Source of the DNA: Candidatus Falkowbacteria bacterium | GTDB lineage: Bacteria > Patescibacteriota > Patescibacteriia > Patescibacteriales > GWE2-39-37 | Direction: 5' to 3' | Length of the DNA: 64,000 bases | Assembly: GCA_013336275.1 (NCBI GenBank) | Contig: JAAXUA010000001.1 | Span: 14,167 to 78,166 of the forward strand | Shown here: in pieces, positions 1,800 through 21,151 of the stretch | Layout: every line of letters begins with the position of its first letter | How positions within the stretch are numbered: the first letter of the stretch is position 1 | The notes under the pieces: model-generated | Database searches by the model: none | What the model was told of the DNA's origin: nothing | What the model saw: the letters and a program-made list of their open reading frames with translations, nothing else | Made by a program: the position numbers and the translations under genes

Positions 1800-1828
1800 T
1801 TGACACCTCATGATTCGGGGTGTATATT
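1800..1828 (+). promoter_or_regulatory. Sigma-70-type promoter of nrtR
   Basis: TTGACA (1800-1805), 17-nt spacer, TATATT (1823-1828). It lies ~30 nt upstream of ATG 1857. Confidence 0.6.
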
Positions 1829-1847
1829 AGTGTTATATAAACACTAA
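1827..1847. promoter_or_regulatory. Candidate NrtR operator 1 (21-bp palindrome)
   Basis: TTAGTGTTATATAAACACTAA has a GT-N7-AC core with inverted TTAGTGT/ACACTAA arms. It overlaps or abuts the -10 of the nrtR promoter. Confidence 0.55.
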
Positions 1848-1856
1848 GTCAAACAA

Positions 1857-2531
1857 ATGGCCAAGCCAGCTAAATTATACCAGTTCGCCGTTATCGCCAC
1901 CGATATCACGATCTTTACCGTCGAGGACGGCGCCTTGAAGGTCCTGCTGATCAAGATGAACAAGTCTCCTTTTGAGGATTGCTGGGCCGCTCCGGGCGGC
2001 TTGATCCAGATCGACGAGTCGGTCGACCAGGCAGCCAAGCGCATCCTGGCCGAGAAGACCGGCTTGAAACAGGTCTATCTCGAACAGCTTTATACTTTCG
2101 GCGAGGTCAAACGCGATCCGTTCGGCCGCGTCGTTTCAGTGGCCTATTTCGCCTTGATTTCAAGTGACGGTCTCAAATTGGCAACTTCCGACGAGCATCG
2201 GGAGATCAGCTGGTTCAGCGTCAATGAGCTGCCCAAGCTGGCCTATGACCATAAGGCGATGATCAGGTCGGCCATCGAGCGCTTGAGAGGGAAGTTGGAA
2301 TACACCAACATCGTCTACAGCCTGCTGCCCGACGCCTTTACCTTGAGCGAGCTGCAGAGCGCCTATGAGACGATCCTCGGCCGTACGCTGGACAAGCGCA
2401 ATTTCCGCAAGAAGGTCCTTTCGTTGGGCATGATCAGGAAAACGGGCAAGCTGGATCTGGGCAAGAAGAATCGCCCGGCCGAGCTCTATTCTTTCATCGA
2501 GAAGAAGTTGAAGAATATCGAGATATTGTAG
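1857..2531 (+). CDS. nrtR: Nudix-related transcriptional regulator of NAD metabolism (Nudix fold plus C-terminal winged HTH)
   Basis: N-terminal Nudix-like domain (GGLIQIDESVDQAAKRILAEKTGL) and C-terminal wHTH region (FTLSELQSAYETILGRTLDKRNFRKKV). It heads an NAD gene cluster. Confidence 0.85.
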   Translation: MAKPAKLYQFAVIATDITIFTVEDGALKVLLIKMNKSPFEDCWAAPGGLIQIDESVDQAAKRILAEKTGLKQVYLEQLYTFGEVKRDPFGRVVSVAYFALISSDGLKLATSDEHREISWFSVNELPKLAYDHKAMIRSAIERLRGKLEYTNIVYSLLPDAFTLSELQSAYETILGRTLDKRNFRKKVLSLGMIRKTGKLDLGKKNRPAELYSFIEKKLKNIEIL

Positions 2532-2576: not shown

Positions 2577-2597
2577 TTAGTGTAGTATTTACAATAA
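2577..2597. promoter_or_regulatory. Candidate NrtR operator 2
   Basis: TTAGTGTAGTATTTACAATAA has the same TTAGTGT-N7-ACAnTAA pattern as 1827-1847. It overlaps a possible TACAAT -10 (2590-2595) upstream of nadM. Confidence 0.5.
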
Positions 2598-2806: not shown

Positions 2807-3898
2807 ATGTCGAAACTGATGAGGCAGAAAATCTTGGAAACGATACTTTTCATTGGCAGGTTCAGCCCGCCCCACAAAGGGCACATCAAGGCGATTCTGG
2901 GGCTCCTAGCAATGTATGACCGGGTGGTCATCGTGCTCGGGAGCTGCTACGAAGTCGGTACGCCAAGGCATCCTTTGCTCGCGATTTATCGGGAAAAGAT
3001 GCTGCTTTACAGCCTGAAGCAGGCCGGAGTGGATATGCGGCGCATCAAGATCGTCCATCTGGAGGACTTCAACAACTGGGAAGCCTGGTGGAAGAAGATC
3101 ATGACGATCTGCAAGCGTTACAGCGCCAAGCAGGTCAGTACTGGCAATGTCGAAGACATCATCGGTCCGTTGACCGAGAAAGGCTTGCTGCCGGATTGGC
3201 TCAAGCTGGTCAACTGCGAAGCTGAACTGCCGGAGCAGTACCGCTACAACTACCGCGCGACCGATTTGCGCAATGCCGTGCTCAGGGGAGATTACCGGAT
3301 GTTTCTGGAAATCGCCGCACCGGGCACGGTCGCGCTGATGGGTAACGTCGGCGGATTCGTCGGCATCAGGCAAGCGCTCGCCAACCAAGGCAAGCGGTTC
3401 GTGCCTGGCCGTCAAGCCGTCGATGCGATTATCGTCACCGAGCATCGCGGCAAGACCTGGATCATGTGCGGCTACCGCAGTCCGGAGAAGCGCAACTTCC
3501 CCGGGTGCCTGGCCATACCGGGTGGCGGTGTCTGGCAGTTCGAAAGTCCGATCGACACGACGTTGAGAGAGGTCAAGCAAGAGACCGGTTTCGAGTTCGT
3601 CATCCTTGATCGTTGCTTGGAACCGGCGCATGTCATGCTCAAAGGCATCGACGTCTTGTGCGAAATGAAGTCGCTCGGCATCTTCTCGACGCCGGACAAG
3701 GGCAAGGCGGGAGACCAAGGCGGCTCATCGCAGCCGTTCCTCTTCCGCCTGGATGTCCATCCGCGCGAGCTCCGTCCGCTGATCAAGGAATCAAGCGAGC
3801 TGTTGCAGGTCGATTTCTACCCCGAAGACTACGTCAAAAAGCAAGGCTTGGCATTCCAGCAGCTCGAAATGGTACAGAAAGCAGGTTATTGCCTGTAA
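2807..3898 (+). CDS. nadM: Bifunctional NMN adenylyltransferase (NadM type) / Nudix ADP-ribose pyrophosphatase
   Basis: GRFSPPHKGH (HxGH nucleotidyltransferase motif) and a RATDLR second motif. C-terminal Nudix box GGGVWQFESPIDTTLREVKQETGF. GGAGG lies 6 nt before ATG 2807. Confidence 0.85.
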   Translation: MSKLMRQKILETILFIGRFSPPHKGHIKAILGLLAMYDRVVIVLGSCYEVGTPRHPLLAIYREKMLLYSLKQAGVDMRRIKIVHLEDFNNWEAWWKKIMTICKRYSAKQVSTGNVEDIIGPLTEKGLLPDWLKLVNCEAELPEQYRYNYRATDLRNAVLRGDYRMFLEIAAPGTVALMGNVGGFVGIRQALANQGKRFVPGRQAVDAIIVTEHRGKTWIMCGYRSPEKRNFPGCLAIPGGGVWQFESPIDTTLREVKQETGFEFVILDRCLEPAHVMLKGIDVLCEMKSLGIFSTPDKGKAGDQGGSSQPFLFRLDVHPRELRPLIKESSELLQVDFYPEDYVKKQGLAFQQLEMVQKAGYCL

Positions 3899-3921: not shown

Positions 3922-4647
3922 ATGAAGAAGATTTCGATTGGAAATGAAGATGCGCTTCTGGCCATCGACGTGCAGCCCACGTTCATGTCCTGCGGCGAAC
4001 TGGCAGTAAGAGACGGGCACCTGATCGTGCCGGTCATCAGACGTCTCATGGATGTCTTCGACAAAAAGAGAAGATACGCCAGCAAGGACTGGCACCCCAA
4101 GGGGCATGTCTCCTTCGCCAGTTCCTACGTCTTTACGGACACCCCGGTCATCGCAGTAGCTGACGTCAGACAATGGATCGAAACGAACGCCGCTTACCTG
4201 AGCTGCAACGCCCGGTTCAACGTCTTTGAACTGCTGCAATATCTTGCGGTCGTCGGCGAACAGCGGCTCTGGCCCGAACATGGCGTCGCTGACACACCTA
4301 CCGCCAGGTTGCATCCAGCCTTCAAAGAATCTGAGTTCAAGGCGATCATCAACAAGGGAGCCAGTCCGCTTGCCGACAGCTATAGTGCGTTCCGCGACAA
4401 TGGCGGTGAAGCAACCAAGCTTGCTGCCCTCCTCCATGCCGACGACATCAAACGCTGTTTCTTTGTCGGCCTGGCAGAGGATTTCTGCGTCGGCTGGAGC
4501 GCCCTCGACGCTGTGAAAATGGGGTTCATGGCCTACGTGATCGAGGACGCCACCCGTCCGGTTGACTGGAACGGCAGCCAAGCTGCCATCAGAAAGTCGT
4601 TCGCTGAACGCGGCGTCAAAGTCATCCAGTCGACAGATATCCTGTAA
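3922..4647 (+). CDS. pncA: Nicotinamidase (isochorismatase family)
   Basis: LLAIDVQPTF, DWHP and GLAEDFCV (catalytic Cys context). SD GAGGAGGG upstream of ATG 3922. The track start at 3613 is an upstream extension overlapping nadM. Confidence 0.85.
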   Translation: MKKISIGNEDALLAIDVQPTFMSCGELAVRDGHLIVPVIRRLMDVFDKKRRYASKDWHPKGHVSFASSYVFTDTPVIAVADVRQWIETNAAYLSCNARFNVFELLQYLAVVGEQRLWPEHGVADTPTARLHPAFKESEFKAIINKGASPLADSYSAFRDNGGEATKLAALLHADDIKRCFFVGLAEDFCVGWSALDAVKMGFMAYVIEDATRPVDWNGSQAAIRKSFAERGVKVIQSTDIL

Positions 4648-4812: not shown

Positions 4813-5877
4813 ATGGGGAAACATGAATTGAGAGACAGGGTGATAGGGATGTTCCTAGGAATCGCCATCGGCGATGCGCTCGGAATGCCGTTCGAGAAGG
4901 TTTTTACCCCGGCTGAGCTATTGGCGATGCCGGACGAAGTCTTCGCTGACTATCAGGATCCGCCGCCAGGACACAAGTTCCACGACGGTAAGCTCAAGGC
5001 CGGCGAGACGACCGATGATACGCAATTGTCGCTGGTCGTAGCCGAATCCTTGATCGCCTGCGGAAGGATCGACATGGATGACATGGCACGACGTCATGTC
5101 GAGGCCATGGATGATCGGGTTTCTGGCTGGGGCAAAGGCACGTTGACGGCAGTAGAACGTCTCAAGTCAGGCGTGTCCTGGCGCGAGTCCGGTATGCCGA
5201 CTAGCGGCAATGGCGTGATGATGAAAATATCACCGTTGGCTGCGATGTTCATCTTGCAGAAACAGCCGTTCAAGAACGGTCTAGGCCCTAAGCCGCACGT
5301 CAAGGCCGCAGCCTTGGCCAGCCGGACCACTGATGGATTATTCGATTTGGCACAGATGACTCACAAGACAAGGTTGGGTGTCGAACAGGGAATAATGCAA
5401 TTCAGTCTCGCATCGCTCTGTTTCGACTGGAGGAATGGCAACGGCTTCATTACGGAGTTCTTCAAGCGCGCGATCATGCTGAGCCTGCAGGTCGAGGCCA
5501 GAAGGGAGCATTTCGATTTCGACATCGACGCCGAGCCTGATCTTTCGAGAAGGATCATCAACTTGATGTGCGAAAAGCATCACCTGAAAGACCTTGCGTT
5601 CTTGGCGGATTATTACGGCGACAAGCCATTCTACGTCTATAATTCGCTACCGCTAACTTACGCCTGCTTCCTCAAGGACCACGACAGCTTCCAGGCTGTC
5701 ATCAACGCGATCCGGGTCGGCGGCGACACCGACACCAATGCCTCAATCGTCGGGGCCTTGCTTGGAGCCAAGAACGGCACTGCGGTCTTCCCGCAAACGC
5801 TCGTCGATGGCCTCAAGGAAAAAGACAAGATTCTCGATGTTGCGGAGCGATTTTGCGACAAATTCCTGCCACTATAA
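4813..5877 (+). CDS. ADP-ribosylglycohydrolase family protein
   Basis: N-terminal GIAIGDALGMPFE and C-terminal GGDTDTNASIVGALLGA motifs of the ARH/DraG family. SD GGGAGG upstream. Confidence 0.85.
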   Translation: MGKHELRDRVIGMFLGIAIGDALGMPFEKVFTPAELLAMPDEVFADYQDPPPGHKFHDGKLKAGETTDDTQLSLVVAESLIACGRIDMDDMARRHVEAMDDRVSGWGKGTLTAVERLKSGVSWRESGMPTSGNGVMMKISPLAAMFILQKQPFKNGLGPKPHVKAAALASRTTDGLFDLAQMTHKTRLGVEQGIMQFSLASLCFDWRNGNGFITEFFKRAIMLSLQVEARREHFDFDIDAEPDLSRRIINLMCEKHHLKDLAFLADYYGDKPFYVYNSLPLTYACFLKDHDSFQAVINAIRVGGDTDTNASIVGALLGAKNGTAVFPQTLVDGLKEKDKILDVAERFCDKFLPL

Positions 5878-5898: not shown

Positions 5899-7455
5899 AT
5901 GTCACAGTTAAAGGCTTTGCTTACCGACCTGTATCAACTGACGATGCTTTACGGCTACTGGCTAGCCGGGCGGCACGAGGAAGAAGCGAGCTTCGACCTC
6001 TTTTTCCGCAAGCACCCCTTCGGCGGCGAGTTCACTATCTTTGCCGGCCTGGAAGATGTCATTACCTACCTCGAAGCATTCAAGTTCGACGATGATGACA
6101 TCGCCTATCTCAAGAGCGTGATGCCTCATTGGCGGCCGGAATTCTTCGACTGGCTCAAGAAGCTTGACTGCTCGAACCTCCGAGTCGACGCCATCGACGA
6201 AGGCAAGCTGGTTTTTCCCAGCGTACCCCTCCTTCGTGCCAGCGGCCACCTCGGCATCGCCCAGCTGGTCGAGACAGCATTCCTGTACATGGTCAATTTC
6301 CCGTCGCTCATCACGACTCAGGCAGCACGCCTGCGTTTGGCAGCCGGTTTCGACAAAGAATGCCTGGAATTCGGTATCCGCCGGGCTCAGGACGCGATGC
6401 GGGCCTCGAAGTATGCCTACATGGGCGGCTTCGATGGCACGAGCAACGTCCTGGCTGGCCAGCGGTACGGCATCAAGGTCAGGGGCACTCACGCCCACTC
6501 CTGGGTAATGAGCTTTACCAGCCTTGCCCAGCTGCCGAACCGTATGATGCCCGACGCGAAAGGCGAAATCCGCGATTTCGTCGAAAGCGTCGAATACTTC
6601 CGCGCCATTTATGCGGGCGAGGGACAGCAGACGAATAGCGGAGAATTAGCCGCTTTTACGCAGTATGCCATGGCTTATCCCGACACCTTTCTCGCCCTGG
6701 TTGACACATACGACACGCTGAAATCCGGCGCACCGAATTTTTCATTCGTTGCTAGGGCCTTGAACAGCTTCGGCTACAAGGCGCTTGGCGTCAGGTTGGA
6801 TTCGGGCGATTTGGCCTACCTCTCAACCAGGATCAGGGAAGTTTTCGACCAAGTGCCATGCTTGGCTGGCTGCAAGATCGTGGCCAGCAATGATCTGGAC
6901 GAAGGCAAGCTGCTGTCGTTCAAAACGCAAAAGCACGCCATCGACGCCTACGGCATCGGTACGGCCCTGGTCACTTGCGCCGACCAGCCGGCGCTCGGCG
7001 GAGTTTACAAGCTGAGCAAGATCAATGGCGACCCGCGGATGAAGTTTTCCCAAGTTCCGGAAAAGAACACTATACCCGGAGTCAAAATACCTTACCGGCT
7101 CTACGGACACGACGGCAAGCCGATCATCGACCTGATGACCGGCGAAGAAGAATCTTCGCCGCAAATCGGAGAAAAGACGCATTGCCGCCACCCGTTCAAC
7201 CCCTCCAAGCGCGCCATCGTGGTGCCTACCAGCGTTGAACCGTTGCATCGCTGCGCCTGGAATGGCTCCAGAATCCGCCCCTCGGCTTCTCTTGCTGACC
7301 GCCGGGAACTGGTTATCAGCCAGCTGCAAGGGATGCCCGAAGACATGTCGAGAACAGAAAACCCTCGGCCTTACAAAGTTGCGGTCAGCGAAAAACTCTA
7401 CCAGGAGATCCAAACGCTGCGCGATACCGAAGTACCTGTTGAAATATTGAGTTGA
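5899..7455 (+). CDS. pncB: Nicotinate phosphoribosyltransferase (long, eukaryote-like type)
   Basis: LTDLYQLTMLYGYW, FELFFR-type block and GTHAHSWVMSF. SD AAGGAG upstream. Confidence 0.9.
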   Translation: MSQLKALLTDLYQLTMLYGYWLAGRHEEEASFDLFFRKHPFGGEFTIFAGLEDVITYLEAFKFDDDDIAYLKSVMPHWRPEFFDWLKKLDCSNLRVDAIDEGKLVFPSVPLLRASGHLGIAQLVETAFLYMVNFPSLITTQAARLRLAAGFDKECLEFGIRRAQDAMRASKYAYMGGFDGTSNVLAGQRYGIKVRGTHAHSWVMSFTSLAQLPNRMMPDAKGEIRDFVESVEYFRAIYAGEGQQTNSGELAAFTQYAMAYPDTFLALVDTYDTLKSGAPNFSFVARALNSFGYKALGVRLDSGDLAYLSTRIREVFDQVPCLAGCKIVASNDLDEGKLLSFKTQKHAIDAYGIGTALVTCADQPALGGVYKLSKINGDPRMKFSQVPEKNTIPGVKIPYRLYGHDGKPIIDLMTGEEESSPQIGEKTHCRHPFNPSKRAIVVPTSVEPLHRCAWNGSRIRPSASLADRRELVISQLQGMPEDMSRTENPRPYKVAVSEKLYQEIQTLRDTEVPVEILS

Positions 7456-7475
7456 CGCCCAAGCGTCAGCATTTC

Positions 7476-7500
7476 GGCGGAGAGACCAGTTCTCTCCGCC
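7476..7500 (+). other. Intercistronic GC hairpin
   Basis: 10-bp perfect stem GGCGGAGAGA/TCTCTCCGCC with a 5-nt loop. No U-tract. Confidence 0.45.
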
Positions 7501-7589
7501 TCCTTACTGGAGCTGCCGATCGATTCGGCATTTGCAGCAAGGAGGACGACCTTTGAAATAAGAATATCGATTACAGAAAGGAGCGACCC

Positions 7590-8405
7590 ATGAAAACCAA
7601 AGGCAAGATTGTGTATTATCCTATTTTCCACGACCCCCAAAGGAACGGCTCGGAAAGGAGCGACAAAGTCAAGAAGTGGGTAGAGCAATTCCTGATCCCG
7701 GCCGGACTGGCCACGATGGACGAAAGCAAGGCTAATGCTTATCTGGTTGCGACCGGAGATGGCGGCCTCATGCGCATCGCCCACGAGAGGTATCAGCGCG
7801 GTAAGGCTATCGTCGGTATCAATTGCGGCCGCTTAGGCTTTCTCTTGAATCCGATCAGCGACATCACCGAGCTGCCGCAGTCATTCGAAGAGCTGACCCT
7901 CTTCAAGCTAAGGCTGTTCAACGTCACATTTGTTCACAGTGATTGGGGAAGGACGCACAGCGTCGTTTTCAACGATGTGGTTGTCGGACACGACGTCTCG
8001 GATTTCATCAGTTTCAAGATCAAGGGAGAGATGAGCCACTTTCCGGAGCGCAAAGTTTCCGGAACCGGGCTCGTCGTCGCCACGCCCCAAGGAACCACCG
8101 GCTACGCGCTAAAAGCGCGGGGAAGCATGGCAGTTCTGCCGCTCGAATCCAATAACTGGTTCATCGGCGGTATCGCCACCGGACCCTATCCCTGCGATGT
8201 GGTGACTCCGCAGACGATCACCATCGAGATGGAATCACGCGACCAGATCAACGGCTACGCAGACGGCAAGGGTTTCAAGGCGGAAAATATCCGTCAGCTC
8301 ATCATCGAACCATCGGAGCACTCGATAGCGCTCGGCTTTATGAGCGGTATCGACTTCCAGGCTAGACGCACCACCTTGGCCCAGCAAATCGAACGAGGCG
8401 AATGA
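7590..8405 (+). CDS. nadK: NAD kinase
   Basis: ATGDGGLMR (GGDG motif), NDVVV and TPQGTTGYALKARGS. SD AAGGAG upstream. Confidence 0.85.
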   Translation: MKTKGKIVYYPIFHDPQRNGSERSDKVKKWVEQFLIPAGLATMDESKANAYLVATGDGGLMRIAHERYQRGKAIVGINCGRLGFLLNPISDITELPQSFEELTLFKLRLFNVTFVHSDWGRTHSVVFNDVVVGHDVSDFISFKIKGEMSHFPERKVSGTGLVVATPQGTTGYALKARGSMAVLPLESNNWFIGGIATGPYPCDVVTPQTITIEMESRDQINGYADGKGFKAENIRQLIIEPSEHSIALGFMSGIDFQARRTTLAQQIERGE

Positions 8406-8427: not shown

Positions 8428-9402
8428 ATGAAGAATCTGGAAAACGTAGTCATCTTTTCTACCAAGGCATCGCTGTATTTCGCTGAACTTATCGCCATGA
8501 GGCTCGGCCTCGAAGTCGGCAGCATCGAGCATAAGGATTTCGGCGGCGTTGAACAGTACTACCGCATCGGCATGGCCAACCGCGACGACCTCATCGGCAA
8601 GACCGCTATTTTCGTGGGCAGTACACATACGGATGACCAGGTCAACGAGCTTTATCGGGTCGGCAGCGCTCTCGCGGGTTATGGAACAGTCAGGCGGATC
8701 TTCGTCATCCCGTTTCTCGGCTATTCGACCATGGAACGGGCCAAATACCCGGGAGAGGTCGTGATGGCCAAGGTCATCGCACGCCAGCTCTCGAACATCC
8801 CGAATTCCGGGATGGGCAATGTTTTCCTGATGATGGATCTGCATGTCTCCGGCTTGGTACACTACTTCGAGGGAGATTGCCAGCGGTATGAGCTCTACGC
8901 CGAGAAACAGCTGACCATCGCGATGAGCGAGCTCAAGCTGGACAACTTCATGTTCGCTTCGGCGGATCTGGGGCGGCCGGCCTGGGTAGCGACTTTTGCC
9001 AAGCTCTTTCAGACCAGCTTCGCGCTGATAGACAAGGGCAGGGAATTCGATGAGACAGAAGTCCTGGCGGTGATCGGCGATGTCCGCGGCAAGAACGTCA
9101 TCATTTACGATGACATGACGCGGAGCGCCACCACCATCATCAATGCTGCCAATGCCTATATCGAGCATGGCGCTACCGGCGTCTATGCGGTCCTGAGCCA
9201 TTGCGCCTTGAACCACCCAAACATCATCGGCCATCTGATCAACTCACCCATCAAGAAGGTGATCACGACTAATACCCATCCAATATCCCAAGAAGTGGCC
9301 CACATCAGCAAGCTCCAGAGCCCACTCGCCGGCCGGTTCCAGGTCTGCGATGTCTCAGGCGAATTCGTCAGAACCATCCAGAAAGTCTTGAACAACAACT
9401 AG
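8428..9402 (+). CDS. Ribose-phosphate pyrophosphokinase homolog, divergent
   Basis: Prs-like over its full length (PFLGY, MDLH, DKGR, DD-loop). The canonical ARQDR is STMER here, and the DDxIDTGGT ribose-5-P loop is YDDMTRSATT. Confidence 0.75.
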   Translation: MKNLENVVIFSTKASLYFAELIAMRLGLEVGSIEHKDFGGVEQYYRIGMANRDDLIGKTAIFVGSTHTDDQVNELYRVGSALAGYGTVRRIFVIPFLGYSTMERAKYPGEVVMAKVIARQLSNIPNSGMGNVFLMMDLHVSGLVHYFEGDCQRYELYAEKQLTIAMSELKLDNFMFASADLGRPAWVATFAKLFQTSFALIDKGREFDETEVLAVIGDVRGKNVIIYDDMTRSATTIINAANAYIEHGATGVYAVLSHCALNHPNIIGHLINSPIKKVITTNTHPISQEVAHISKLQSPLAGRFQVCDVSGEFVRTIQKVLNNN

Positions 9403-9432: not shown

Positions 9433-10344
9433 ATGGAAAGACGGATGTTTTTCGGCAGGAACGGCGGCAAGGTCACTGAGGTGACCAAGGAGAAAGCCGC
9501 GGAAATGAAACCGCAACTGGTCCTGGACACGGCCTCGATGCTTGAGGAAAGGACCCACCTTTGCCACCACGACTGCCAGAATGACGAGATTATTGAATTC
9601 GTCCAGACATCTTACGATGGCTGGGGAAAATTCGGCTCGGATGGCGATCTGATCGTCGTCTGCTTTTACCGGCTTAACGAGGGGGCTTGTGTCGCCCAGA
9701 TTGAGTTCATCGGACGGCTGCAGCGGTGCAAACCTTCTCTGGCAGCTGATATCATTCCGGTGATTACAGACAGCGAAGGCAACACTTTCTTCGTCCTGAT
9801 CCATCGGAAATACGACCCGGGCAAAGGCAAGATCGCCCTGATCGGTGGCAACGAGGAGGTGATCGGACCCTACTTCCAGACTCCGACTGCCACCCTGCAG
9901 ATGGAGGCAATGGAGGAAGTGAATCTGGTGCTCGTGCCCCAAGTTGGCGCCGAGCAGGATTTTTTCCACCGTCCGTTCATCCCGAGGGTGCCGGTGAAAG
10001 TCAAGCTCCGACAGCGCGAAGTCTCCGAGACCGACAGCGAATTGATTCTGCTCGGAACCTATGAGACTTCAGCAGAAGAGGAGAGGCCGCACCTGAAGGC
10101 CAAGCGCATCAACTGGACTACGGCCTACATCCTGCCGATCAGGGTAGATTTCCCGGTCGACAAGGAGATGCTGACCCGCTGGTTCCGTGCGGGCGATGAT
10201 GCCGAGAAGATGGCATTCGTCAATCTGGCGACCGACCCCTATCCGGAGTTCGGCATCGGCCATCACGGCACGATCTTCTCCGACGCCATGGAAGCGCTCC
10301 GCCGGGAATACCCGATGAAGGTCTGCACTGCGCTCCACGAATAG
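9433..10344 (+). CDS. Hypothetical protein with degenerate Nudix-like box
   Basis: IGGNEEVIGPYFQTPTATLQMEAMEEVNL resembles GX5EX7REUXEEXGU with R replaced by M and G by N. SD AAGGAGAG lies before ATG 9433. Confidence 0.45.
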   Translation: MERRMFFGRNGGKVTEVTKEKAAEMKPQLVLDTASMLEERTHLCHHDCQNDEIIEFVQTSYDGWGKFGSDGDLIVVCFYRLNEGACVAQIEFIGRLQRCKPSLAADIIPVITDSEGNTFFVLIHRKYDPGKGKIALIGGNEEVIGPYFQTPTATLQMEAMEEVNLVLVPQVGAEQDFFHRPFIPRVPVKVKLRQREVSETDSELILLGTYETSAEEERPHLKAKRINWTTAYILPIRVDFPVDKEMLTRWFRAGDDAEKMAFVNLATDPYPEFGIGHHGTIFSDAMEALRREYPMKVCTALHE

Positions 10345-10497: not shown

Positions 10498-12960
10498 ATG
10501 CCGAACAGCGAAAAGAAAGCCAAGGTCGCAATCTGCCAGATGCCCGTAACATTGGGGCGTCCCGATCTCAACACGGTCTACATGGAGGAGGAAATCAAGA
10601 AGGCGGCTGCGGACGGAGTCGAAATCATCATCTTTCCCGAGATGTGCGTCCCCGGTTATCTGATCGGTGATGCCTATGAAGATGAGTCCTTCGTCTTTGA
10701 CGTCCTTAATTGTAACGAGCGCCTGCGCTTGGCAACCAAGGACCTGGCCATTACGGCGATCTTCGGATCGATCAGCGCCCACGCGCAAGCCTGGGGCGAG
10801 GACGGACGGATGCTTAAAAGCAACGGCATCTTCGCCGCAGCGAACGGAGAATGGCTGTATCAGGGCGAAAAGTCTCTGCAACCGAACTACCGGATGTTCG
10901 ACGACGATCGCCATTTCTGCAGCAAGCGCAAACTGCGCGACCGGATCGAGGCCAGCGCCAATCGTGCAATGACTATCCAAAGCATGTTCGAGACGGTAGA
11001 AATCCCGTTGGCAACCGGCAGCATCATTGCCGGTATTATTGAATGCGAGGATATGTGGGACAAGGATTATCCTTTCAGCCCCACCAAGATCCTGGTCGAA
11101 ATGGGGGCCGAGCTGATCATTAATCTCTCGGCTTCGCCCTGGACCTGGCAGAAGAACCGCAAGCGCCACTCGGTAGTCAAGGAACTTCTGACCGAAAATC
11201 CGGTTCCTTTCGTCTACGTCAACAACACCGGAGTGCAGAATAACGGGAAAAACCTGGTCATTTTCGATGGCAGCTCGACAGTCTATAATCAGGCCGGAGA
11301 CATCGCCCTCGAAGTGCCGCCTTTCTTTGCCGGAACCGAAACCTTCGACCTGTCCTGGGAGATGCCGGCAATCGAACCGATCATCCTGGATGACACTACT
11401 CAGCTGTATCAGGCGCTCCGCCATGGGGTGAAGCAGTTTCTCTGGAACATGCCGCCAGAAAGGCGCAAGATGATCATCGGCTTGTCCGGCGGCATCGACT
11501 CAGCCTTGGCAGCTGCCTTCTACGTCGACATCCTCGGCCCGAGAAACGTCTATCTCTACAACCTGCCGACCGATTTCAATAGCGACGAGACCAAATCAAT
11601 TGCGGCGGAAATTGCGCGCAACCTGGGAACGCACTACGAAGTCGTACCTATCCAAGGCGTGGTCGACGCCATCGCCAAAGCCACCGGGTGCGATCCGGAA
11701 AAGGACGAGCTGACCTACGAGAATATCCAGGCGCGTGTGCGCATGGAGATCTTGGCAGCCGAGGCACAGAAGCTCGGCGGCCTGTTCAGCTGCAACAGCA
11801 ACAAAGTGGAAGTCGCTTTCGGCTACGGCACAATGTACGGAGACATCGCCGGCTATCTGGCCGCCTTCGGTGACCTAGTCAAGCGGGAAGTCTACCAGTT
11901 GGCAGACTACTTCAACCGCGTCGTTTTCGAAAGGGAAATCATACCGCAGTCGTGCTTCAAAATAAAGCCCAAGGCCGAATTGAAGCGGGACCAGAAAGAC
12001 CCGTTCGACTACGGCAACCTCGAAGTCCGCGGCTACCACGACGAGATGGTCCGCGCCATGACTGAATTCCGCTGGAATCCGGAGAAATTCGTAGAGAAGT
12101 ATGTTGCCGGCAAGCTCGAAAAGGAGCTTAAGCTCGAACCGGGAACGCTCAAGCGGCTGTTTCCCAACGTGCGGGACTTCCTCTCCGATCTTGAAAAATC
12201 GTGGCGGTTGTTCTTTGACGCCTACCGCAAGCGGGTACAGGCACCACCCATCCCGATCGTAACCAAGCGAGCCTTCGGTTTCGACCTTCGCGAGGCGCTG
12301 ATGAGCGCCCATTTTACAGCCCGCTACCACACTCTGCGGGACCTGGCGTTGAAAGTCTTTCCGGCGCCTCTGGAAATAGCCGTCTTCGGGGGAAGTTTTA
12401 ATCCCCCGGGAAGGCATCACCAGGAAATCGCCGGAATGCTGACCATGTTCGACAAGATCGTTATCGTCCCTTGCGGAGCAAGGGCAGATAAGCCGTCGGC
12501 CAACATCGTGCCGATAGAACACCGCCGCGTTATGGCACTGCTCGCATTCCCCGAAAGCGAACGGATAAAGTTGGATTTGCATGATTTTGAAACCGGCGAA
12601 TATACGCCTACCTATCTTTTGGATCGGCGCTACAAAGAGCTTTATCCGGGGTCGGAAATCTGGCATGTCATCGGTGAAGATATTATCGCCGGCGGTAGCA
12701 AGGGCGAATCAGAAATCCAGCGCACTTGGAATCGCGGACCCCAGATCTGGGAAACGCTGAATTGGGCGGTCTTGACTCGCAAGGGCTATGGAGCCGATAA
12801 GGCTGATCTGCCGCCGCACCACATGCTGATCGAGGTCGAAGGCGTCTTCGGGTCCGGGACACTCATCCGGGATCGTCTCAAGGACGGCTTTGCGATAAAC
12901 GACCTGGTTTCCCCCCAAGTTGCGGATTATATTTATGAACACGACCTCTACCTCGAGTAG
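10498..12960 (+). CDS. nadE: Triple-domain fusion: CN-hydrolase (glutaminase) + NAD synthetase + NaMN adenylyltransferase-like domain
   Basis: N-terminal nitrilase-type domain (VAICQMPV.., FPEMCVPGY, CEDMW). Central PP-loop GLSGGIDSALAA. C-terminal VFGGSFNPPGRHH plus SGTLIRDRL, which is NadD-like. SD AAGGAGGAG upstream. Confidence 0.85.
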   Translation: MPNSEKKAKVAICQMPVTLGRPDLNTVYMEEEIKKAAADGVEIIIFPEMCVPGYLIGDAYEDESFVFDVLNCNERLRLATKDLAITAIFGSISAHAQAWGEDGRMLKSNGIFAAANGEWLYQGEKSLQPNYRMFDDDRHFCSKRKLRDRIEASANRAMTIQSMFETVEIPLATGSIIAGIIECEDMWDKDYPFSPTKILVEMGAELIINLSASPWTWQKNRKRHSVVKELLTENPVPFVYVNNTGVQNNGKNLVIFDGSSTVYNQAGDIALEVPPFFAGTETFDLSWEMPAIEPIILDDTTQLYQALRHGVKQFLWNMPPERRKMIIGLSGGIDSALAAAFYVDILGPRNVYLYNLPTDFNSDETKSIAAEIARNLGTHYEVVPIQGVVDAIAKATGCDPEKDELTYENIQARVRMEILAAEAQKLGGLFSCNSNKVEVAFGYGTMYGDIAGYLAAFGDLVKREVYQLADYFNRVVFEREIIPQSCFKIKPKAELKRDQKDPFDYGNLEVRGYHDEMVRAMTEFRWNPEKFVEKYVAGKLEKELKLEPGTLKRLFPNVRDFLSDLEKSWRLFFDAYRKRVQAPPIPIVTKRAFGFDLREALMSAHFTARYHTLRDLALKVFPAPLEIAVFGGSFNPPGRHHQEIAGMLTMFDKIVIVPCGARADKPSANIVPIEHRRVMALLAFPESERIKLDLHDFETGEYTPTYLLDRRYKELYPGSEIWHVIGEDIIAGGSKGESEIQRTWNRGPQIWETLNWAVLTRKGYGADKADLPPHHMLIEVEGVFGSGTLIRDRLKDGFAINDLVSPQVADYIYEHDLYLE

Positions 12961-13760: not shown

Positions 13761-14726
13761 ATGACAGCTAATGAAGAGTTGGACGGAGCAGTCAAGCAGA
13801 TCCGCGAATTGTGCGCCCAGTCGCCGTATGCCCAAGGCAAGAATTTTTTCGACCAGTCCTTGAGCAAGCGTCAAGGCGGGCAAGTCGGCGATCGTCATTT
13901 CGAGACGCTGCGCCGCGCCTATCAGGTCGTGTGCCGGGTGGCTGAGGGAGACTATTCCCAGCTGTTCGGCGCCTACATGGCCGACGAGGCCGGCGAAGAA
14001 GAACGGGTGGTGATCAAGATCGTGGACGATCCGGCAGATAACGATCTCCTGCAGAACGAATTGCGGGTGCTCGAGTATCTCCAGGTCCATCCCGGCAGCC
14101 AGCAGAAACATCTGCCCGTTTTGGTCGACCGTTTCGTAACGGGCGGCCAAGGAGGCGAGGATGAATGCCACGGTTCGGTGCTCAAGTATTTTGACGGATT
14201 AGACATCCTGGAAGTCAGGAATCGTCCGAAATTCGCCAAGGGCATGGACCCGTACCACGTCGGCTGGGTCCTCCAGCGGACGTTGAGCGCAGCCGGCTTC
14301 GCGCATTCGTGCGGAGTCGTCCACTGCAACATCGAGCCGGCACACATCATGATACGCCCAAGGAACCATGGCCTTTGCCTGGTCGATTGGAGCTACGCGG
14401 CCATCAACCCGCTGCAGACCGGCGACCGTTACCGGGTGTTCAACGAGATCGGCTATAGCGCTCCCGAAATACGGGACGGCGCCAAGCCTCATCCGTCCGC
14501 TGACCTGTATTCCATCGGCAAGAGCATGGTCGCCCTGTTAGGCGGCAACATCGCAACCGGTGAGATGCCGGGCGCAGTCGACGAGAGGTTCCAGAAACTG
14601 ATCAAGCTGATGATCCTGGAAGACCCGCTAGCTCGGGCGCAAGACGCCTGGGTGATGCACCAGCTATTGAAACCGCTCCGCCAGGAAATCTGGGGCGAGC
14701 ATGAATTCACGCCGCTCGAAGTCTGA
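13761..14726 (+). CDS. Protein-kinase-like protein with HCN in place of the HRD catalytic motif
   Basis: VVIKIV (VAIK Lys), NELRVLEYL (alpha-C Glu), VVHCNIEPAHIMI (codons 14322-14330 = His-Cys-Asn), DWS (DFG-like), YSAPE, DLYSIG. Confidence 0.7.
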   Translation: MTANEELDGAVKQIRELCAQSPYAQGKNFFDQSLSKRQGGQVGDRHFETLRRAYQVVCRVAEGDYSQLFGAYMADEAGEEERVVIKIVDDPADNDLLQNELRVLEYLQVHPGSQQKHLPVLVDRFVTGGQGGEDECHGSVLKYFDGLDILEVRNRPKFAKGMDPYHVGWVLQRTLSAAGFAHSCGVVHCNIEPAHIMIRPRNHGLCLVDWSYAAINPLQTGDRYRVFNEIGYSAPEIRDGAKPHPSADLYSIGKSMVALLGGNIATGEMPGAVDERFQKLIKLMILEDPLARAQDAWVMHQLLKPLRQEIWGEHEFTPLEV

Positions 14727-14750: not shown

Positions 14751-16232
14751 GTGGGAGACGACTTTTACGACGACGATGTTGCTTCAAGGACCCGTTCGAC
14801 CAGAACCGAAGCGTTCCAGCGCAGTACTGGAACCGGCAACCAGCGCACGACGCGCACGACCATCAGCCCGATACTGAACCCTCATGGGGTCAAGAAACGC
14901 GAAGCCCGCGATTCGGCTGATCACCCCAACACCACGCCGATCGTGGTCATCCAGGACGGCACGCTGTCCCGGGGGGAGGATTTCCTCTTCTTGTGGCAGA
15001 AGCTGCCGATGTTCATCGGCCAGATGTATCTCCAGAATTACGTGCCTCATCCGGTGCTGAGCCTGGCCGTTGTCGGCGATATGACCGACAAGGACCGGTT
15101 TCCGCTCCAGGTCTCGCAGTTCGAAGCTGACAACCGTCTCGACGTCGCCATGGAAGAATTCATCATTGAGAAAGGCGGCGGCGGCTCCGGTCAGGAATCT
15201 TACGAGCTGGCGGCATACTTCTACGCCACCAGGTCGGAACTCGACGCTAACAAGCGTGGCGAGAAAGGCTTCTGTTTCATCTTCGGCGACGAGCGCTTTT
15301 ACGAGCATCTCGACCCCAAGCAGCTGAAGGAGCTGTTTGGCGACGACATCGACTACATCATGGATTCGAAGATGGTCTTCGACGCCCTGCAGGAGAAGTA
15401 CCACGTGTTCTTCATCTACACCCGCAAGGCCTGGGCCGAGCGCAAAGCCGGCATCGACGAGGAAATCGCCAAACGTGTCCGCCAGTTCGGTGGCCGCGTC
15501 GACGATGTCGAGATGGGATTTTCGCTTATTTGGCCAACCCAGGACGACCTTGATCTGCGCGTTACCCCGCCGAGCGGCGAGGAGATATACTACGGTCACA
15601 AACGGTCGCGCTGCGGAGGTGAACTGGATGTCGATAAGAATGCCAACCCACCCTATACGACCAAGCCGGTAGAAAACACTGTCTGGGTCAGGGGTACAGC
15701 TCCGGCCGGACGCTACCGCGTTGTCGTACAGAACTACGCCTATCACAGCGGTAATTACAACGCAGTACCGTTCAAGGTGCAGAAGGTAGTTAACGGCGAC
15801 GTCGAATTTTTCGAAGGCAAGACCAAAGCTGGTTCAACCGGCCCTGAAAGCAACGTCCTGTGCTTCGACTTCGACTACGATCCGAGGCAGCGACCGGTAG
15901 ATGATACCGTTTATGCCGCCTACGATGACCAGGCGATTATCGCCCAATGGGCATCGGTTCTGCCGCACGAGCATGTCATGATCATTGATGACCCTCGTGC
16001 CGGTGTCGACCTGATGCTCGGCGCCATGGCCCTGAAATCCGGCTCAGCCGATCTGCGCAAGTATATGGCTGATATGGAGGCCCGAGGACAGGATGAAGAG
16101 CGCATCACCGTAGTTTCAACTGCCTTGAGCAAGCTAGCCAGCGCATCGGCCCCGGTCGCCAAGATCGACGCTTCGGCACTGCCTGACCGCAGCGGTCCGG
16201 CAAACCGCCGGAACCGCACCACCAGGATTTAA
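14751..16232 (+). CDS. vWA-like domain protein with C-terminal YfaP/DUF2135-like beta-sandwich
   Basis: GTG start after GGAGGTG. MIDAS-like DGTLS, GGGGSGQESYELA and FIFGDE. C-terminal IWPTQDDLDLRVTPPSGEEIYYGH..GGELDVDKN..GRYRVVVQNY. Confidence 0.6.
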   Translation: MGDDFYDDDVASRTRSTRTEAFQRSTGTGNQRTTRTTISPILNPHGVKKREARDSADHPNTTPIVVIQDGTLSRGEDFLFLWQKLPMFIGQMYLQNYVPHPVLSLAVVGDMTDKDRFPLQVSQFEADNRLDVAMEEFIIEKGGGGSGQESYELAAYFYATRSELDANKRGEKGFCFIFGDERFYEHLDPKQLKELFGDDIDYIMDSKMVFDALQEKYHVFFIYTRKAWAERKAGIDEEIAKRVRQFGGRVDDVEMGFSLIWPTQDDLDLRVTPPSGEEIYYGHKRSRCGGELDVDKNANPPYTTKPVENTVWVRGTAPAGRYRVVVQNYAYHSGNYNAVPFKVQKVVNGDVEFFEGKTKAGSTGPESNVLCFDFDYDPRQRPVDDTVYAAYDDQAIIAQWASVLPHEHVMIIDDPRAGVDLMLGAMALKSGSADLRKYMADMEARGQDEERITVVSTALSKLASASAPVAKIDASALPDRSGPANRRNRTTRI

Positions 16233-18847: not shown

Positions 18848-20035
18848 ATGGAACAGCTCTTGGCAAGAATCGCAGCATTCGCAGCAGCAGTCAGTAAGAC
18901 GGTCGAAGAAGTGACCGAGGCTCTCAAGCAGTACCTCGGCGAGTTCAACGACAGTACCGCTGAAATCCTGGCAGATGAGGCTTCCACCCCGATCGAAGAC
19001 CTGAAGCCTGTCCTGACCGACGACGGTCCCAAGATCCCGCTGCCCGTCCTGAAGTTCAACCTCTACCTGCTGCGCGGCAAAGAGAAAGTGGCCGAACAAC
19101 CGGCTGCCGCTCCCGTACCCGCCGCAGCACCCGCTGCCTCCGGCTTCGCCACCGACGTCCTGCCGGCCGTTCCCGACGATGACAGCTTCCTTGAAGCGCT
19201 CAAAGTCGGCGGCGTCCTGCGCGTCGGTACCACCGAAGTCATCTGCGCCATCCGCTCGGCCCTCGCCAACCGGGTCGGTCTCTATGACCTGCCCAAAGTC
19301 CTGCTCAAGCTGATCGAAGAAAAGGCGATAAAGTCCCGCAAGCCCAGCGGCCCCGAGTACTACGAGCTCCAGAAGCTCGTGACCCAGCGTTCCTACGCCG
19401 AGATTTTCCGCGCCCTCGAAGTTCCGGGCGAATTCGCCACCGAAGGCCGCAAAAACCAGCTGCTCGACCGCATCGATCCGACTCTCTGGGACGCCCTTTT
19501 CAGCTTCCAGAACCAGCTGATCGGCTGGCGCGACTCCTGGTCCGCCGGCATGGCCAATCCGATGATGATGTTCAGTGTCATGGCCATGGGTTCCGCCGGT
19601 CAGCCTTTGCCCCCCGGCATGATGACCCCGCCCGACACCGCTCCGCTCCGCGATGCGGCCGAGAGCGTGATCGAAACGATCAACGCCGTCTTCGCCGGTC
19701 CGAGCATCCCGATCGTCCGCGCCTTGGCCTGGGACGCCCAGCGCGTCAAGAAGCTCTTGACCGATGAGCGCCTTCCGGCCGCCTGCGGTGCCGTCGACGC
19801 GGAGCAGATGCTCCTCGACCTCGACGTGGCCGTCACCTCCGATTACATCCGCCTGGAACGCTCGATTGTCCGCTACGCCCTCGGCATCATGGAGTACCCG
19901 AAAGTCACTCCGGGCAACGAGGAGTATAATTACGTCGGCGCCCTCTTGCAGCTCGGCCTGAGCATCCCCTGGGACAAGCTCCCGGAACGCTCCGACAAGA
20001 ACGGCAAGAAGAAAGCGGGATTCGAGAAATTCTAG
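18848..20035 (+). CDS. Hypothetical protein (no recognisable domain; Pro/Ala-rich linker)
   Basis: 395-codon ORF preceded by SD AAAGGAGAA. It has its own promoter and terminator. I recognise no motif in it. Confidence 0.7.
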   Translation: MEQLLARIAAFAAAVSKTVEEVTEALKQYLGEFNDSTAEILADEASTPIEDLKPVLTDDGPKIPLPVLKFNLYLLRGKEKVAEQPAAAPVPAAAPAASGFATDVLPAVPDDDSFLEALKVGGVLRVGTTEVICAIRSALANRVGLYDLPKVLLKLIEEKAIKSRKPSGPEYYELQKLVTQRSYAEIFRALEVPGEFATEGRKNQLLDRIDPTLWDALFSFQNQLIGWRDSWSAGMANPMMMFSVMAMGSAGQPLPPGMMTPPDTAPLRDAAESVIETINAVFAGPSIPIVRALAWDAQRVKKLLTDERLPAACGAVDAEQMLLDLDVAVTSDYIRLERSIVRYALGIMEYPKVTPGNEEYNYVGALLQLGLSIPWDKLPERSDKNGKKKAGFEKF

Positions 20036-20060
20036 AACAGTAACGCACCTTTGAAACCAA

Positions 20061-20101
20061 GGGTGGTGAGCTTAAGCAATACAGCTCATCACCCTTTTTT
20101 C
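20061..20101 (+). terminator. Intrinsic terminator after the hypothetical gene
   Basis: 11-bp stem GGGTGGTGAGC/GCTCATCACCC (one G-U pair), 12-nt loop, then a T6 run. Confidence 0.7.
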
Positions 20102-20128
20102 GTTTCAAAAATTCCGAATGAAAGGAGA

Positions 20129-21151
20129 ATGCCCATGGGAAGCGGATGTTCACGAGACTCATATGAAGAAAGCTTTTCGCGCACCAAGAAGGCCTTTACC
20201 GGCGATGCTGGTACTCGAGCCAAAGAAAGTGAAGCCCGCGGAGAGCGGATACACCGTGCCAAGGAGACCGTAACCGAAGAGAAGCACGAGGAAACGAGAG
20301 AAGAGAAGGTCGACCCCAGCAAGATCAGGCTCGGCATCACCAAGCCAAGCACGACCGCCAAGAGGGTCCATATCTTCCTGGTCGACAACTCCGGCTCCAA
20401 CCGGGCGATCGCTGAAGGGCTGCGCAAGTCATCGGGTTATCTTTCCGCCGTTCACGGCGTAATCGACCCCGAATCAGACTTTGCCAATATCTTTTTCAGC
20501 GACCACTGCGACGGTTCGCGCATCATGCAGGAAGTGGATTACGTGCCGCCGACACCCGAAGGCGACCTGATCCTGCTCTCGACCATTTCCCGGATCTATC
20601 CCGCCGGTGGCGGCGATGCTCCGGAAGCGATCGAGTGCGCCATGAAGCGCGCTTGCGAGCTCGACTTCGGCGGCGCCCTGTACAAGCACCTTTATCTCGT
20701 CAGTGACGAAGTGGCGCATGGCATGGGCAGATCAGGAGACGACGGCTGTCCGCTCCAGGTCAACTGGCGCGACGAGCTCGAGCGAGTCCACGAGACTTAT
20801 GACACCTTTGAGGTGATCGGCTGCGGCAATGAAGCCAAAGTAGCTGAGCTGCAGAAAAAATTCCTGAGTCCCGAACGCCTGGCCTACGATTTTATCGACC
20901 TTTCAGCCATCAAGGAACACGAGCACCGGCTCGGCATCACTGCCAACGCCATCCTGTTCCTGGTAGCGCGCAAGCAGGGAATCCAGATGGTCGAGGTCTT
21001 CCTGGCCGGCCTGTATGAGAAATGGCTGGCCAGTCCAGTCTTCGGAGCAAACACCGAAATGAAAGCCAAGGAAGCCATCCGGCGTTTCGGCAAATACCTC
21101 GAAGCGCCTGAAAGCGAGATCGAGGCGATGATGCAACGCGTGCTGGTGTAA
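20129..21151 (+). CDS. vWA domain protein (paralog of the N-terminal part of 14751-16232)
   Basis: MIDAS DNSGS, AGGGDAPEAIECA, YLVSDEVAHG. SD AAAGGAG upstream. The start is either ATG 20129 or ATG 20135. The track start at 20051 lies in the terminator. Confidence 0.65.
   Translation: MPMGSGCSRDSYEESFSRTKKAFTGDAGTRAKESEARGERIHRAKETVTEEKHEETREEKVDPSKIRLGITKPSTTAKRVHIFLVDNSGSNRAIAEGLRKSSGYLSAVHGVIDPESDFANIFFSDHCDGSRIMQEVDYVPPTPEGDLILLSTISRIYPAGGGDAPEAIECAMKRACELDFGGALYKHLYLVSDEVAHGMGRSGDDGCPLQVNWRDELERVHETYDTFEVIGCGNEAKVAELQKKFLSPERLAYDFIDLSAIKEHEHRLGITANAILFLVARKQGIQMVEVFLAGLYEKWLASPVFGANTEMKAKEAIRRFGKYLEAPESEIEAMMQRVLV

Follow-up and report, generated by a model that had tools for sequence, protein, structure and literature searches.

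The window analysed here, a 64-kb stretch (64,000 nucleotides) of Candidatus Falkowbacteria DNA, encodes at 8428..9402 on the plus strand a 324-aa homolog of ribose-phosphate pyrophosphokinase (Prs), which we refer to as PrsL. We found that PrsL belongs to a subfamily of Prs proteins that is marked by the motif GYSTMER and whose genes recurrently lie beside those of nicotinamide adenine dinucleotide (NAD) salvage. Judging from sequence and gene context, we consider it rather likely that PrsL is a phosphoribosyl pyrophosphate (PRPP) synthase devoid of allosteric regulation and committed to NAD salvage and recycling.

The PrsL open reading frame (ORF) is intact and preceded by a GGAGGAG Shine-Dalgarno sequence, and its product matches an NCBI protein from Candidatus Falkowbacteria at 100 %. 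Both Pfam domains of the Prs fold were recognized, Pribosyltran_N (PF13793; 53.9 bits against a cut-off of 25, 2e-14) and Pribosyl_synth (PF14572; 46.3 bits against 27, 6e-12). In the NCBIfam profile search PrsL passed the general Prs model TIGR01251 (140.8 bits, cut-off 113) while remaining far below the cut-off of every species-level Prs equivalog model. The best solved relatives in a PDB sequence search were human PRPS1/2 and E. coli Prs (E 1e-24 to 1e-28, residues 5-297 aligned), archaeal class III structures matching much more weakly (E 1e-11 to 1e-14); a direct blastp comparison with E. coli Prs gave E = 7e-29. The AlphaFold2 (AF2) model of PrsL (predicted local distance difference test score, pLDDT, 88.9) superimposes on human PRPS1 bound to ATP and ribose-5-phosphate (R5P) with template modelling (TM) scores of 0.85/0.90 over 321 aligned columns, and it includes the C-terminal helices 286-295, 299-302 and 310-322. 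This end-to-end alignment with the human and E. coli enzymes bears out the collinearity with ribose-phosphate pyrophosphokinase noted in an earlier, sequence-only reading of the gene. On these comparisons we assign PrsL to the Prs family, as a member distinct from the ordinary housekeeping-type enzymes.

The GYSTMER subfamily

A database search with PrsL returned 797 homologs, the best 120 of which are 50-85 % identical to it and, where the source is named, come almost all from Patescibacteria. We aligned these 120 with E. coli Prs, B. subtilis Prs and the Adps of phage ICP1, Adps being the ADP-ribose pyrophosphokinase of phage and bacterial NARP1 (PMC13586617; PMC12774641; Osterman et al. 2024 preprint). 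The clade reads G-Y-S-T-M-E-R in place of the canonical G-Y-A-R-Q-D-R, and D-D-M-x-R-[ST] in place of D-D-M-x-D-T. Both GYSTMER and DDMxR vary little or not at all in the 120 homologs as well as in 60 relatives of 34-41 % identity. Additional clade traits are a 4-residue insert after FxDGE that contains Tyr44 and Arg46, His145-Tyr146 for Gly-Phe, Arg183 for Gly173 and His284 for Ile275. Within this clade PrsL carries two minority variants, SATT (3/120, against the consensus SGGT) and FGGVE (10/120, against FGDGE), both of which are shared by its nearest relatives.

Scanning the GTDB species representatives with the GYSTME pattern yielded 211 relatives. Besides those of Patescibacteria, they include genes of 34-41 % identity (around 37 %) on large contigs from Kofleriaceae and further Myxococcota, from cultured species of Chitinophaga, and from Cytophagales, Bdellovibrionales, Planctomycetaceae and Gemmatimonadota. 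These distant relatives carry every signature residue, their pyrophosphate (PP) loop reading D-D-M-I-R-T-G-G-S, and those with large genomes (Chitinophaga, Kofleriaceae, Cytophagales) presumably carry a canonical Prs as well. GYSTMER-type proteins, 51-56 % identical to PrsL, also occur in EukProt transcriptome assemblies (P0047, P0078, P0103, P0111), where they probably stem from reads of Patescibacteria symbionts or contaminants.

The family shares 27-30 % identity with canonical Prs and 14-20 % with Adps. In a neighbour-joining tree it was monophyletic in 100/100 bootstraps and the canonical Prs clade was recovered in 99/100; Kimura distances were undefined for the most divergent Adps pairs, and only these two clades of the tree are trustworthy. 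We regard GYSTMER, as far as sequence comparison can define it, as a previously unnamed, cross-phylum and NAD-salvage-linked Prs subfamily, separate from canonical Prs and from Adps. It would thus form a third lineage beside these two, with PRPP supply to nicotinate phosphoribosyltransferase (NaPRT), PncB or NAMPT as its suggested function.

These results bear on one alternative, namely that PrsL is the ordinary and sole housekeeping Prs of a reduced candidate phyla radiation (CPR) genome, divergent through the fast evolution of Patescibacteria and located in an NAD cluster by chance. PrsL does pass the TIGR01251 cut-off, it is the one Prs-like locus of the window (we found no second one, and no other phosphoribosyltransferase (PRTase), in the remainder of the 64 kb), and CPR genomes are small, many of them lacking de novo nucleotide synthesis (PMC9530719). 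However, the signature (GYSTMER, DDMxR, the Y-x-R insert and His284) is common to genes of large-genome bacteria at 34-41 % identity, and it is therefore a family trait and not CPR drift. The monophyly of the family in all bootstraps and the recurrence of its NAD-gene linkage across phyla also speak against a housekeeping enzyme, as does the finding that some Patescibacteria have no Prs at all (PMC9530719). We consider this alternative unlikely. The sequence-only reading had left room for a divergent ordinary Prs; divergent it is, but ordinary does not fit a distinct NAD-cluster subfamily whose ATP site is remodelled and whose allosteric sites are gone.

Active site and allosteric sites

Residue roles were taken from E. 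coli PRPS structures (PMC9232217, PMC6332680) and mapped onto PrsL and 90 family members. In the E. coli enzyme the hydroxyls of T225 and T228 and the backbone amides of residues 224-226 hold the 5-phosphate (PMC9232217, PMC6332680), D224 making its phosphate contact via the backbone amide (PMC6332680). The adenine of ATP lies between Phe35' and Arg96, while Gln97 binds the ribose (PMC6332680).

The catalytic and ATP-phosphate residues K194, R196, H131 and R99 are all retained in PrsL. The first two correspond to K203 and R205 in the catalytic flexible-loop segment K203-G-R205 (9034..9042, +), which is conserved, and K203, R205, H139, D180, D228 and D229 of PrsL are invariant in 90/90 family members. 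The R5P-contacting residues D170, D220, D221, T225 and T228 are likewise retained or conservatively replaced, as D180, D228, D229, S233 and T236. All but the first of these lie in the PP/R5P loop Y227-D-D-M-T-R232-S233-A-T-T236 (9106..9135, +). Across the GYSTMER family this loop reads R-[ST]-G-G-[ST], as compared with R-S-A-T-T in PrsL, and the T225 position is occupied by Ser or Thr in 85/90 members. We take the alanine that PrsL has at the G226 position to be present in B. subtilis Prs as well. The 5-phosphate loop thus appears functionally intact, because the side chains that contact R5P are retained and the altered residue, D224, contacts the phosphate by its backbone amide. The three strings singled out in the sequence-only reading were read correctly (FGGVEQ, residues 38-43; STMER, 100-104; YDDMTRSATT, 227-236), but the conclusion that the 5-phosphate loop had been rewritten does not hold: the S233 and T236 hydroxyls are kept, the wider family reads R-T-G-G-S, and genuine Adps proteins show the opposite pattern.

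Other parts of the active site have changed. In the segment Y99-S-T101-M102-E-R104 and the loop AKYPGEV that follows it (8722..8760, +), the canonical YARQDR has lost Arg96 and Gln97 and the Arg-rich regulatory flexible loop has been replaced. The changes R96 to T101, Q97 to M102 and D224 to R232 were found in every family member sampled. The flag region F38-G-G-V-E42-Q-Y44-Y-R46-I (8539..8568, +) retains the Phe and Glu of FSDGE, F38 and E42 being the equivalents of F35 and E39, and contains the 4-residue insert with the family-invariant Tyr44 and Arg46. Compared with class I Prs, further substitutions are Gly173 to Arg183, Gly137 to His and Ile275 to His284.

On the other hand, none of the ten residues of allosteric site 1 (R49, S81, R102, S103, R105, Q136, D144, S308, S310, F313) is conserved in PrsL, and the C-terminal SxSxxF motif is missing from the protein. 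This pattern indicates that both allosteric ADP/inorganic phosphate (Pi) sites of class I Prs have been lost in the GYSTMER family.

Gene context and the proposed route

We counted neighbouring genes in 80 related loci, 23 from Patescibacteria and 57 distant. Three types of pyridine PRTase accompany the family: a PncB/TIGR01514-type NaPRT in 14/23 Patescibacteria loci and none of the 57 distant ones, a TIGR01513-type NaPRT in 1/23 and 22/57 (in the latter immediately upstream), and a NadV/NAMPT in 0/23 and 5/57, a representative of which scores 618 bits on NF006629. Since the only known co-substrate common to these three partner families is PRPP, PRPP is probably the product of PrsL.

The remaining neighbours belong largely to the same pathway. 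NadE was found in 12/23 Patescibacteria loci, mostly as the next gene downstream, and in 19/57 distant loci; the corresponding counts are 11/23 and 1/57 for NadD, 3/23 and 10/57 for PncA, and 3/23 and 2/57 for ADP-ribosylglycohydrolase. The ADP-ribose-responsive repressor NrtR is present in 24/80 loci (5/23 and 19/57). A NudF-like Nudix protein (below NCBIfam cut-offs; 7/23) and an NAD-kinase-like protein (4/23 at E<1e-8, and 11 Patescibacteria loci by looser neighbour clustering) were not seen in any of the 57 distant loci. Conversely, a divergent PfkB-family sugar kinase occurs in 23/57 distant loci and in no Patescibacteria locus. Its best NCBIfam matches are fructokinase, ribose-1-phosphate kinase and ribokinase, all far below cut-off. 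In the Myxococcota loci (L032-L080) it lies on the opposite strand, ~50-1700 bp upstream of PrsL and divergent to pncB-prsL or prsL, and in a further group of loci without a PRTase it directly adjoins PrsL. In Myxococcota the genes form the operon pncB-prsL-nadE-nrtR-pncA, according to a Pfam check, while the Chitinophaga gene of the family stands alone. The NudF-like Nudix protein, PfkB kinase, NadD and NadE would each supply R5P or consume nicotinate mononucleotide (NaMN), and NrtR is linked to the family as well.

A sister locus (L006), whose PrsL is 81 % identical to that of the window, matches the window in gene order over the whole span between ddl and adenylosuccinate synthetase; PrsL and Unk308 are unchanged, and the NadE-NadD fusion is present there too (Unk308 and the fusion are described below). 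However, its segment 7674-9961 differs from window positions 5899-8405. A PncB/TIGR01514-type NaPRT stands in place of the TIGR01513-type enzyme, and the next slot holds, instead of the divergent NAD-kinase-like protein of 271 aa, a NAD kinase of 294 aa that is closer to the canonical form. The two loci thus differ by two non-orthologous displacements in adjacent slots.

In the window, every gene between ~700 and 18,600 is on the plus strand, in the order Ddl, NrtR, NadM-Nudix, PncA, ADP-ribosylglycohydrolase, NaPRT, NAD-kinase-like, PrsL, Unk308 and NadE-NadD, followed by a PRK/uridine-kinase-like protein, kinases, a pyruvate-kinase-like protein and adenylosuccinate synthetase. NrtR (1857..2531; PF21906 1.2e-25, NF050029 2.5e-52) contains a Nudix domain. 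The next gene, at 2807..3898, encodes a NadM-type nicotinamide mononucleotide (NMN) adenylyltransferase fused to a Nudix domain. The ADP-ribosylglycohydrolase, NaPRT and Nudix genes that the sequence-only reading had listed around PrsL are indeed there, except that one of its Nudix ADP-ribose hydrolases is the regulator NrtR. Upstream of PrsL, the divergent 271-aa NAD-kinase-like gene (7590..8405; 59 bits on the NCBIfam NAD kinase models, below cut-off) ends 22 nt before the PrsL gene, and the two apparently form one transcription unit. Unk308, a lineage-restricted protein of 303 aa (9433..10344), starts 30 nt downstream of PrsL; a search of 5.8 billion proteins yielded only 6 homologs of it, all from close relatives. 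Its AF2 model was unusable (pLDDT 46.8); a NUDIX match at E 0.02-0.06 and a conserved QMEAxEE motif, in which RE has become ME, suggest that it is possibly a degenerate Nudix fold. Hairpins flank the unit formed by the NAD-kinase-like gene, PrsL and Unk308 on either side.

A perfect 21-bp palindrome, TTAGTGTTATATAAACACTAA (1827..1847), overlaps the -10 box of the nrtR promoter, which is a near-consensus sigma-70-like promoter (TTGACA-17-TATATT), and a copy with 1 mismatch lies upstream of the nadM promoter (2577..2597). These are the only matches to the palindrome in the 64 kb, and they are likely the NrtR operators of this Patescibacteria lineage.

The most economical reading of these findings is the following route, in line with a recycling scheme put forward earlier for NrtR regulons (PMC2330246). 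NAD-consuming reactions would yield nicotinamide and ADP-ribose, the latter either free or freed by the ADP-ribosylglycohydrolase (4813..5877; PF03747 2.4e-46), which is predicted to release it. A Nudix ADP-ribose diphosphatase would then split ADP-ribose, also the inducer of NrtR, into AMP and R5P, and PrsL would transfer the beta,gamma-diphosphate of ATP onto C1 of R5P to form PRPP. In parallel, the nicotinamidase PncA (3922..4647; NF008623 4.7e-42) would convert nicotinamide to nicotinate, from which the TIGR01513-type NaPRT (5899..7455; 511.7 bits, cut-off 297), a PRPP consumer, would make NaMN. Finally, NaMN would be turned into NAD by NadD and NadE, here encoded as a single ORF in which glutamine-dependent NadE (CN_hydrolase and NAD_synthase domains) is fused to the NaMN adenylyltransferase NadD (10498..12960), and the NAD-kinase-like protein would provide NADP. 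Because both allosteric sites are lost, the PRPP supply for NAD rebuilding would be independent of feedback by purine nucleotides (ADP/GDP).

Several observations weigh against this proposal. The changes in or beside the active site that are invariant in the family (Arg96, Gln97, Asp224 to Arg, Gly173 to Arg and the Tyr/Arg insert) are of a kind that often accompanies a change of substrate or donor; they could reflect a relocation of charge, with Thr in place of R96 and Arg in place of D224, another range of donors, or space for a bulkier acceptor. In the NadM fusion the Nudix box, GGGVWQFESPIDTTLREVKQETGF, is imperfect, the first Glu of REUxEE being replaced by Gln (REVKQE), and for this reason the ADP-ribose diphosphatase activity of the fusion is doubtful. 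Unk308, located between PrsL and NadE-NadD, has only a sub-threshold NUDIX match. Furthermore, we did not observe any NrtR-type palindrome directly upstream of the unit formed by the NAD-kinase-like gene and PrsL (7590), and the Myxococcota operon contains no nadD.

As to the rest of the window, the start of ddl is spanned by a perfect 23-nt inverted repeat whose arms (655-677 / 706-728) are 28 nt apart. The NAD cluster is closely followed by two genes for Ser/Thr protein kinases of the eukaryotic type and by several ORFs of some size without a Pfam match (13761-14726, 21217-23511, 14751-16232, 18848-21151), and the remainder is taken up by surface and glycosylation genes.

ADP-ribose, other alternatives and known Prs systems

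The sequence-only reading had put forward ADP-ribose as a possible acceptor. In its full form, this alternative holds that PrsL pyrophosphorylates ADP-ribose or another 5-substituted ribose, that NaPRT joins the product with nicotinate to form nicotinate adenine dinucleotide (NaAD), and that NadE converts NaAD to NAD, as in a deamidated version of NARP1. There is precedent in the Adps/Namat pairs, one of them a validated bacterial pair (PMC12774641). The family also appears to represent a second Prs-like gene in large-genome bacteria and is linked to NrtR, a sensor of ADP-ribose. A direct route to NaAD would lead one to expect exactly the nadD-less operon with pncA, pncB, prsL and nadE that is found in Myxococcota. 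Moreover, the family-invariant Arg232 lies beside the 5-phosphate site and Arg183 contributes more positive charge; either of them could bind the extra phosphate of ADP-ribose.

We compared PrsL with six Adps proteins, namely ICP1 Adps, taken from the phage genome, and five others, each adjoining a Namat; no Adps was present among the PDB sequences or in the Foldseek PDB library (up to April 2026). PrsL and Adps share a Prs-derived fold, the catalytic Lys, His, Asp and DD residues, the loss of the canonical allosteric sites, an adjoining type II PRTase and a role, proposed in the case of PrsL, in NAD rebuilding. Nevertheless, PrsL is only 14-18 % identical to the six, and its blastp match to ICP1 Adps (E = 0.002, 25.8 bits) places it outside Adps similarity. 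When 50,697 phage records were searched by tblastn, PrsL matched 29 and ICP1 Adps 1474, with no record in common among the matches listed.

The determinants described for ICP1 Adps are a PP loop D-D-I-C-D-x-A-A-S followed by Phe221 and Phe223, the residues Arg87, Phe18' and Phe92 around the adenine of ADP-ribose, Lys185, and the loss of alpha11-alpha12 (PMC13586617). The equivalent of R96 is Arg in 6/6 Adps (Arg87) but Thr in the GYSTMER family, so that of the adenine-stacking residues PrsL retains the equivalent of Phe18' and has Thr for Arg87. The D224 position is Asp in 5/6 Adps (Asp216) and Arg in the GYSTMER family, and the T225 position, Ser or Thr in nearly all GYSTMER members, is Gly in 5/6. 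The position of Phe221, Phe in 6/6 Adps, is Leu or Ile in the GYSTMER family. Their PP loops accordingly read DDIC-D-G-[GA]-[AG]-[ST]-F and DDMT-R-S-A-T-T-I (the latter in PrsL, which does not have the AAS loop), and Adps proteins, at ~280 aa, lack the alpha11-alpha12 region whereas PrsL keeps its C-terminal helices. Identity, phage searches, PP loop, Arg87 and the C-terminal module together rule out PrsL as an Adps proper.

The partner enzymes differ as well: Adps is paired with a Namat carrying an aromatic clamp, the GYSTMER family with NaPRT or NAMPT. The Namat signature GS[FY]x[FY]x[FY]xTRD forms the clamp for the adenine of ADP-ribose pyrophosphate (PMC12774641). This clamp is present in 5/5 phage Namats, which read GS[YF]TYQxxTRD, and in 0/5 of the PrsL-linked NAMPTs, all five of which read G[SM]GG[GA]LLQKxxRD. 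A motif of the latter type is presumably that of human NAMPT as well. The NAMPT partners of the family therefore look like PRPP-type enzymes, not Namats.

Other features of the loci are equally difficult to reconcile with an ADP-ribose acceptor. A switch of substrate would be needed in three unrelated types of PRTase, of which the NaPRT partners pass ordinary equivalog cut-offs; the ADP-ribose-diphosphatase-like Nudix genes of the same clusters would destroy ADP-ribose; and NadD is encoded in the window as in almost half of the Patescibacteria loci. We think this alternative quite unlikely. Its more specific version, in which Arg232 and Arg183 hold the extra phosphate, ADP-ribose is pyrophosphorylated in the orientation of R5P, the product is not (or not only) PRPP and NaPRT forms NaAD, strikes us as very doubtful. 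If it were true, the GYSTMER loci would represent an NrtR-controlled, chromosomal and deamidated NARP1 by which Patescibacteria, Myxococcota and Bacteroidota rebuild NAD from both of the products that NADases release.

A PRPP synthase with a changed diphosphoryl donor (dATP, GTP or another nucleotide), as in plant class II, would account for the replacement of Arg96 by Thr and Gln97 by Met and for the Tyr44/Arg46 insert on the flag region of the neighbouring subunit, and class II and III enzymes likewise lack the allosteric sites. However, the ATP site retains Phe35, Glu39, Arg99 and His131, and we regard a new donor as highly improbable. A catalytically inactive regulatory subunit, comparable to the eukaryotic PRPS-associated proteins, has a negligible probability: the C-terminal half of PrsL is weakly similar to PAP39/41, but the family-invariant catalytic residues K203, R205, H139, D180, D228 and D229 rule out an inactive subunit or a pseudogene, and no partner Prs is encoded nearby.

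Our preferred reading of PrsL as an unregulated, salvage-committed PRPP synthase relates to a question that has been open since 2008, namely what leads certain bacteria to retain a second prs, linked to NrtR, next to the genes of NAD salvage. From 2024 on, all genes of this kind have in addition been candidates for an ADP-ribose pyrophosphokinase. An enzyme of the kind we propose would answer the 2008 question about a separate PRPP-forming enzyme. The lineage can be recognized by GYSTMER, DDMxR[ST], a Y-x-R insert after FxDGE and the absence of a C-terminal SxSxxF, a rule that guards against over-annotating Prs homologs of NAD clusters as Adps. Cultured Chitinophaga, Haliangium and other Myxococcota are hosts in which activity and regulation are testable, and a natural PRPP synthase insensitive to feedback would be of interest for engineering the production of NMN, NAD or nucleotides.

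Among known systems, the class I Prs enzymes (E. coli, B. subtilis, human PRPS1/2; EC 2.7.6.1) share with PrsL the full-length two-domain PRT-type fold but, unlike their genes, prsL sits in an NAD salvage cluster. In this respect it resembles the NrtR-regulated second prs paralogs known from the prs-nadV operons of Shewanella, Acinetobacter and Cytophaga (Rodionov 2008, PMC2330246), for which the proposed logic of the NrtR regulon leads from ADP-ribose through R5P and PRPP to the pyridine mononucleotide (PMC2330246). Both PrsL and these paralogs cluster with a pyridine phosphoribosyltransferase and with NrtR; the partner is nadV in the 2008 cases and NaPRT (pncB) in the window and in Myxococcota. 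Class II (plant) and class III (archaeal) PRPP synthases are not subject to allosteric inhibition by ADP. The loss of site residues suggests that PrsL would resemble them in this property, although its best PDB matches are class I enzymes.

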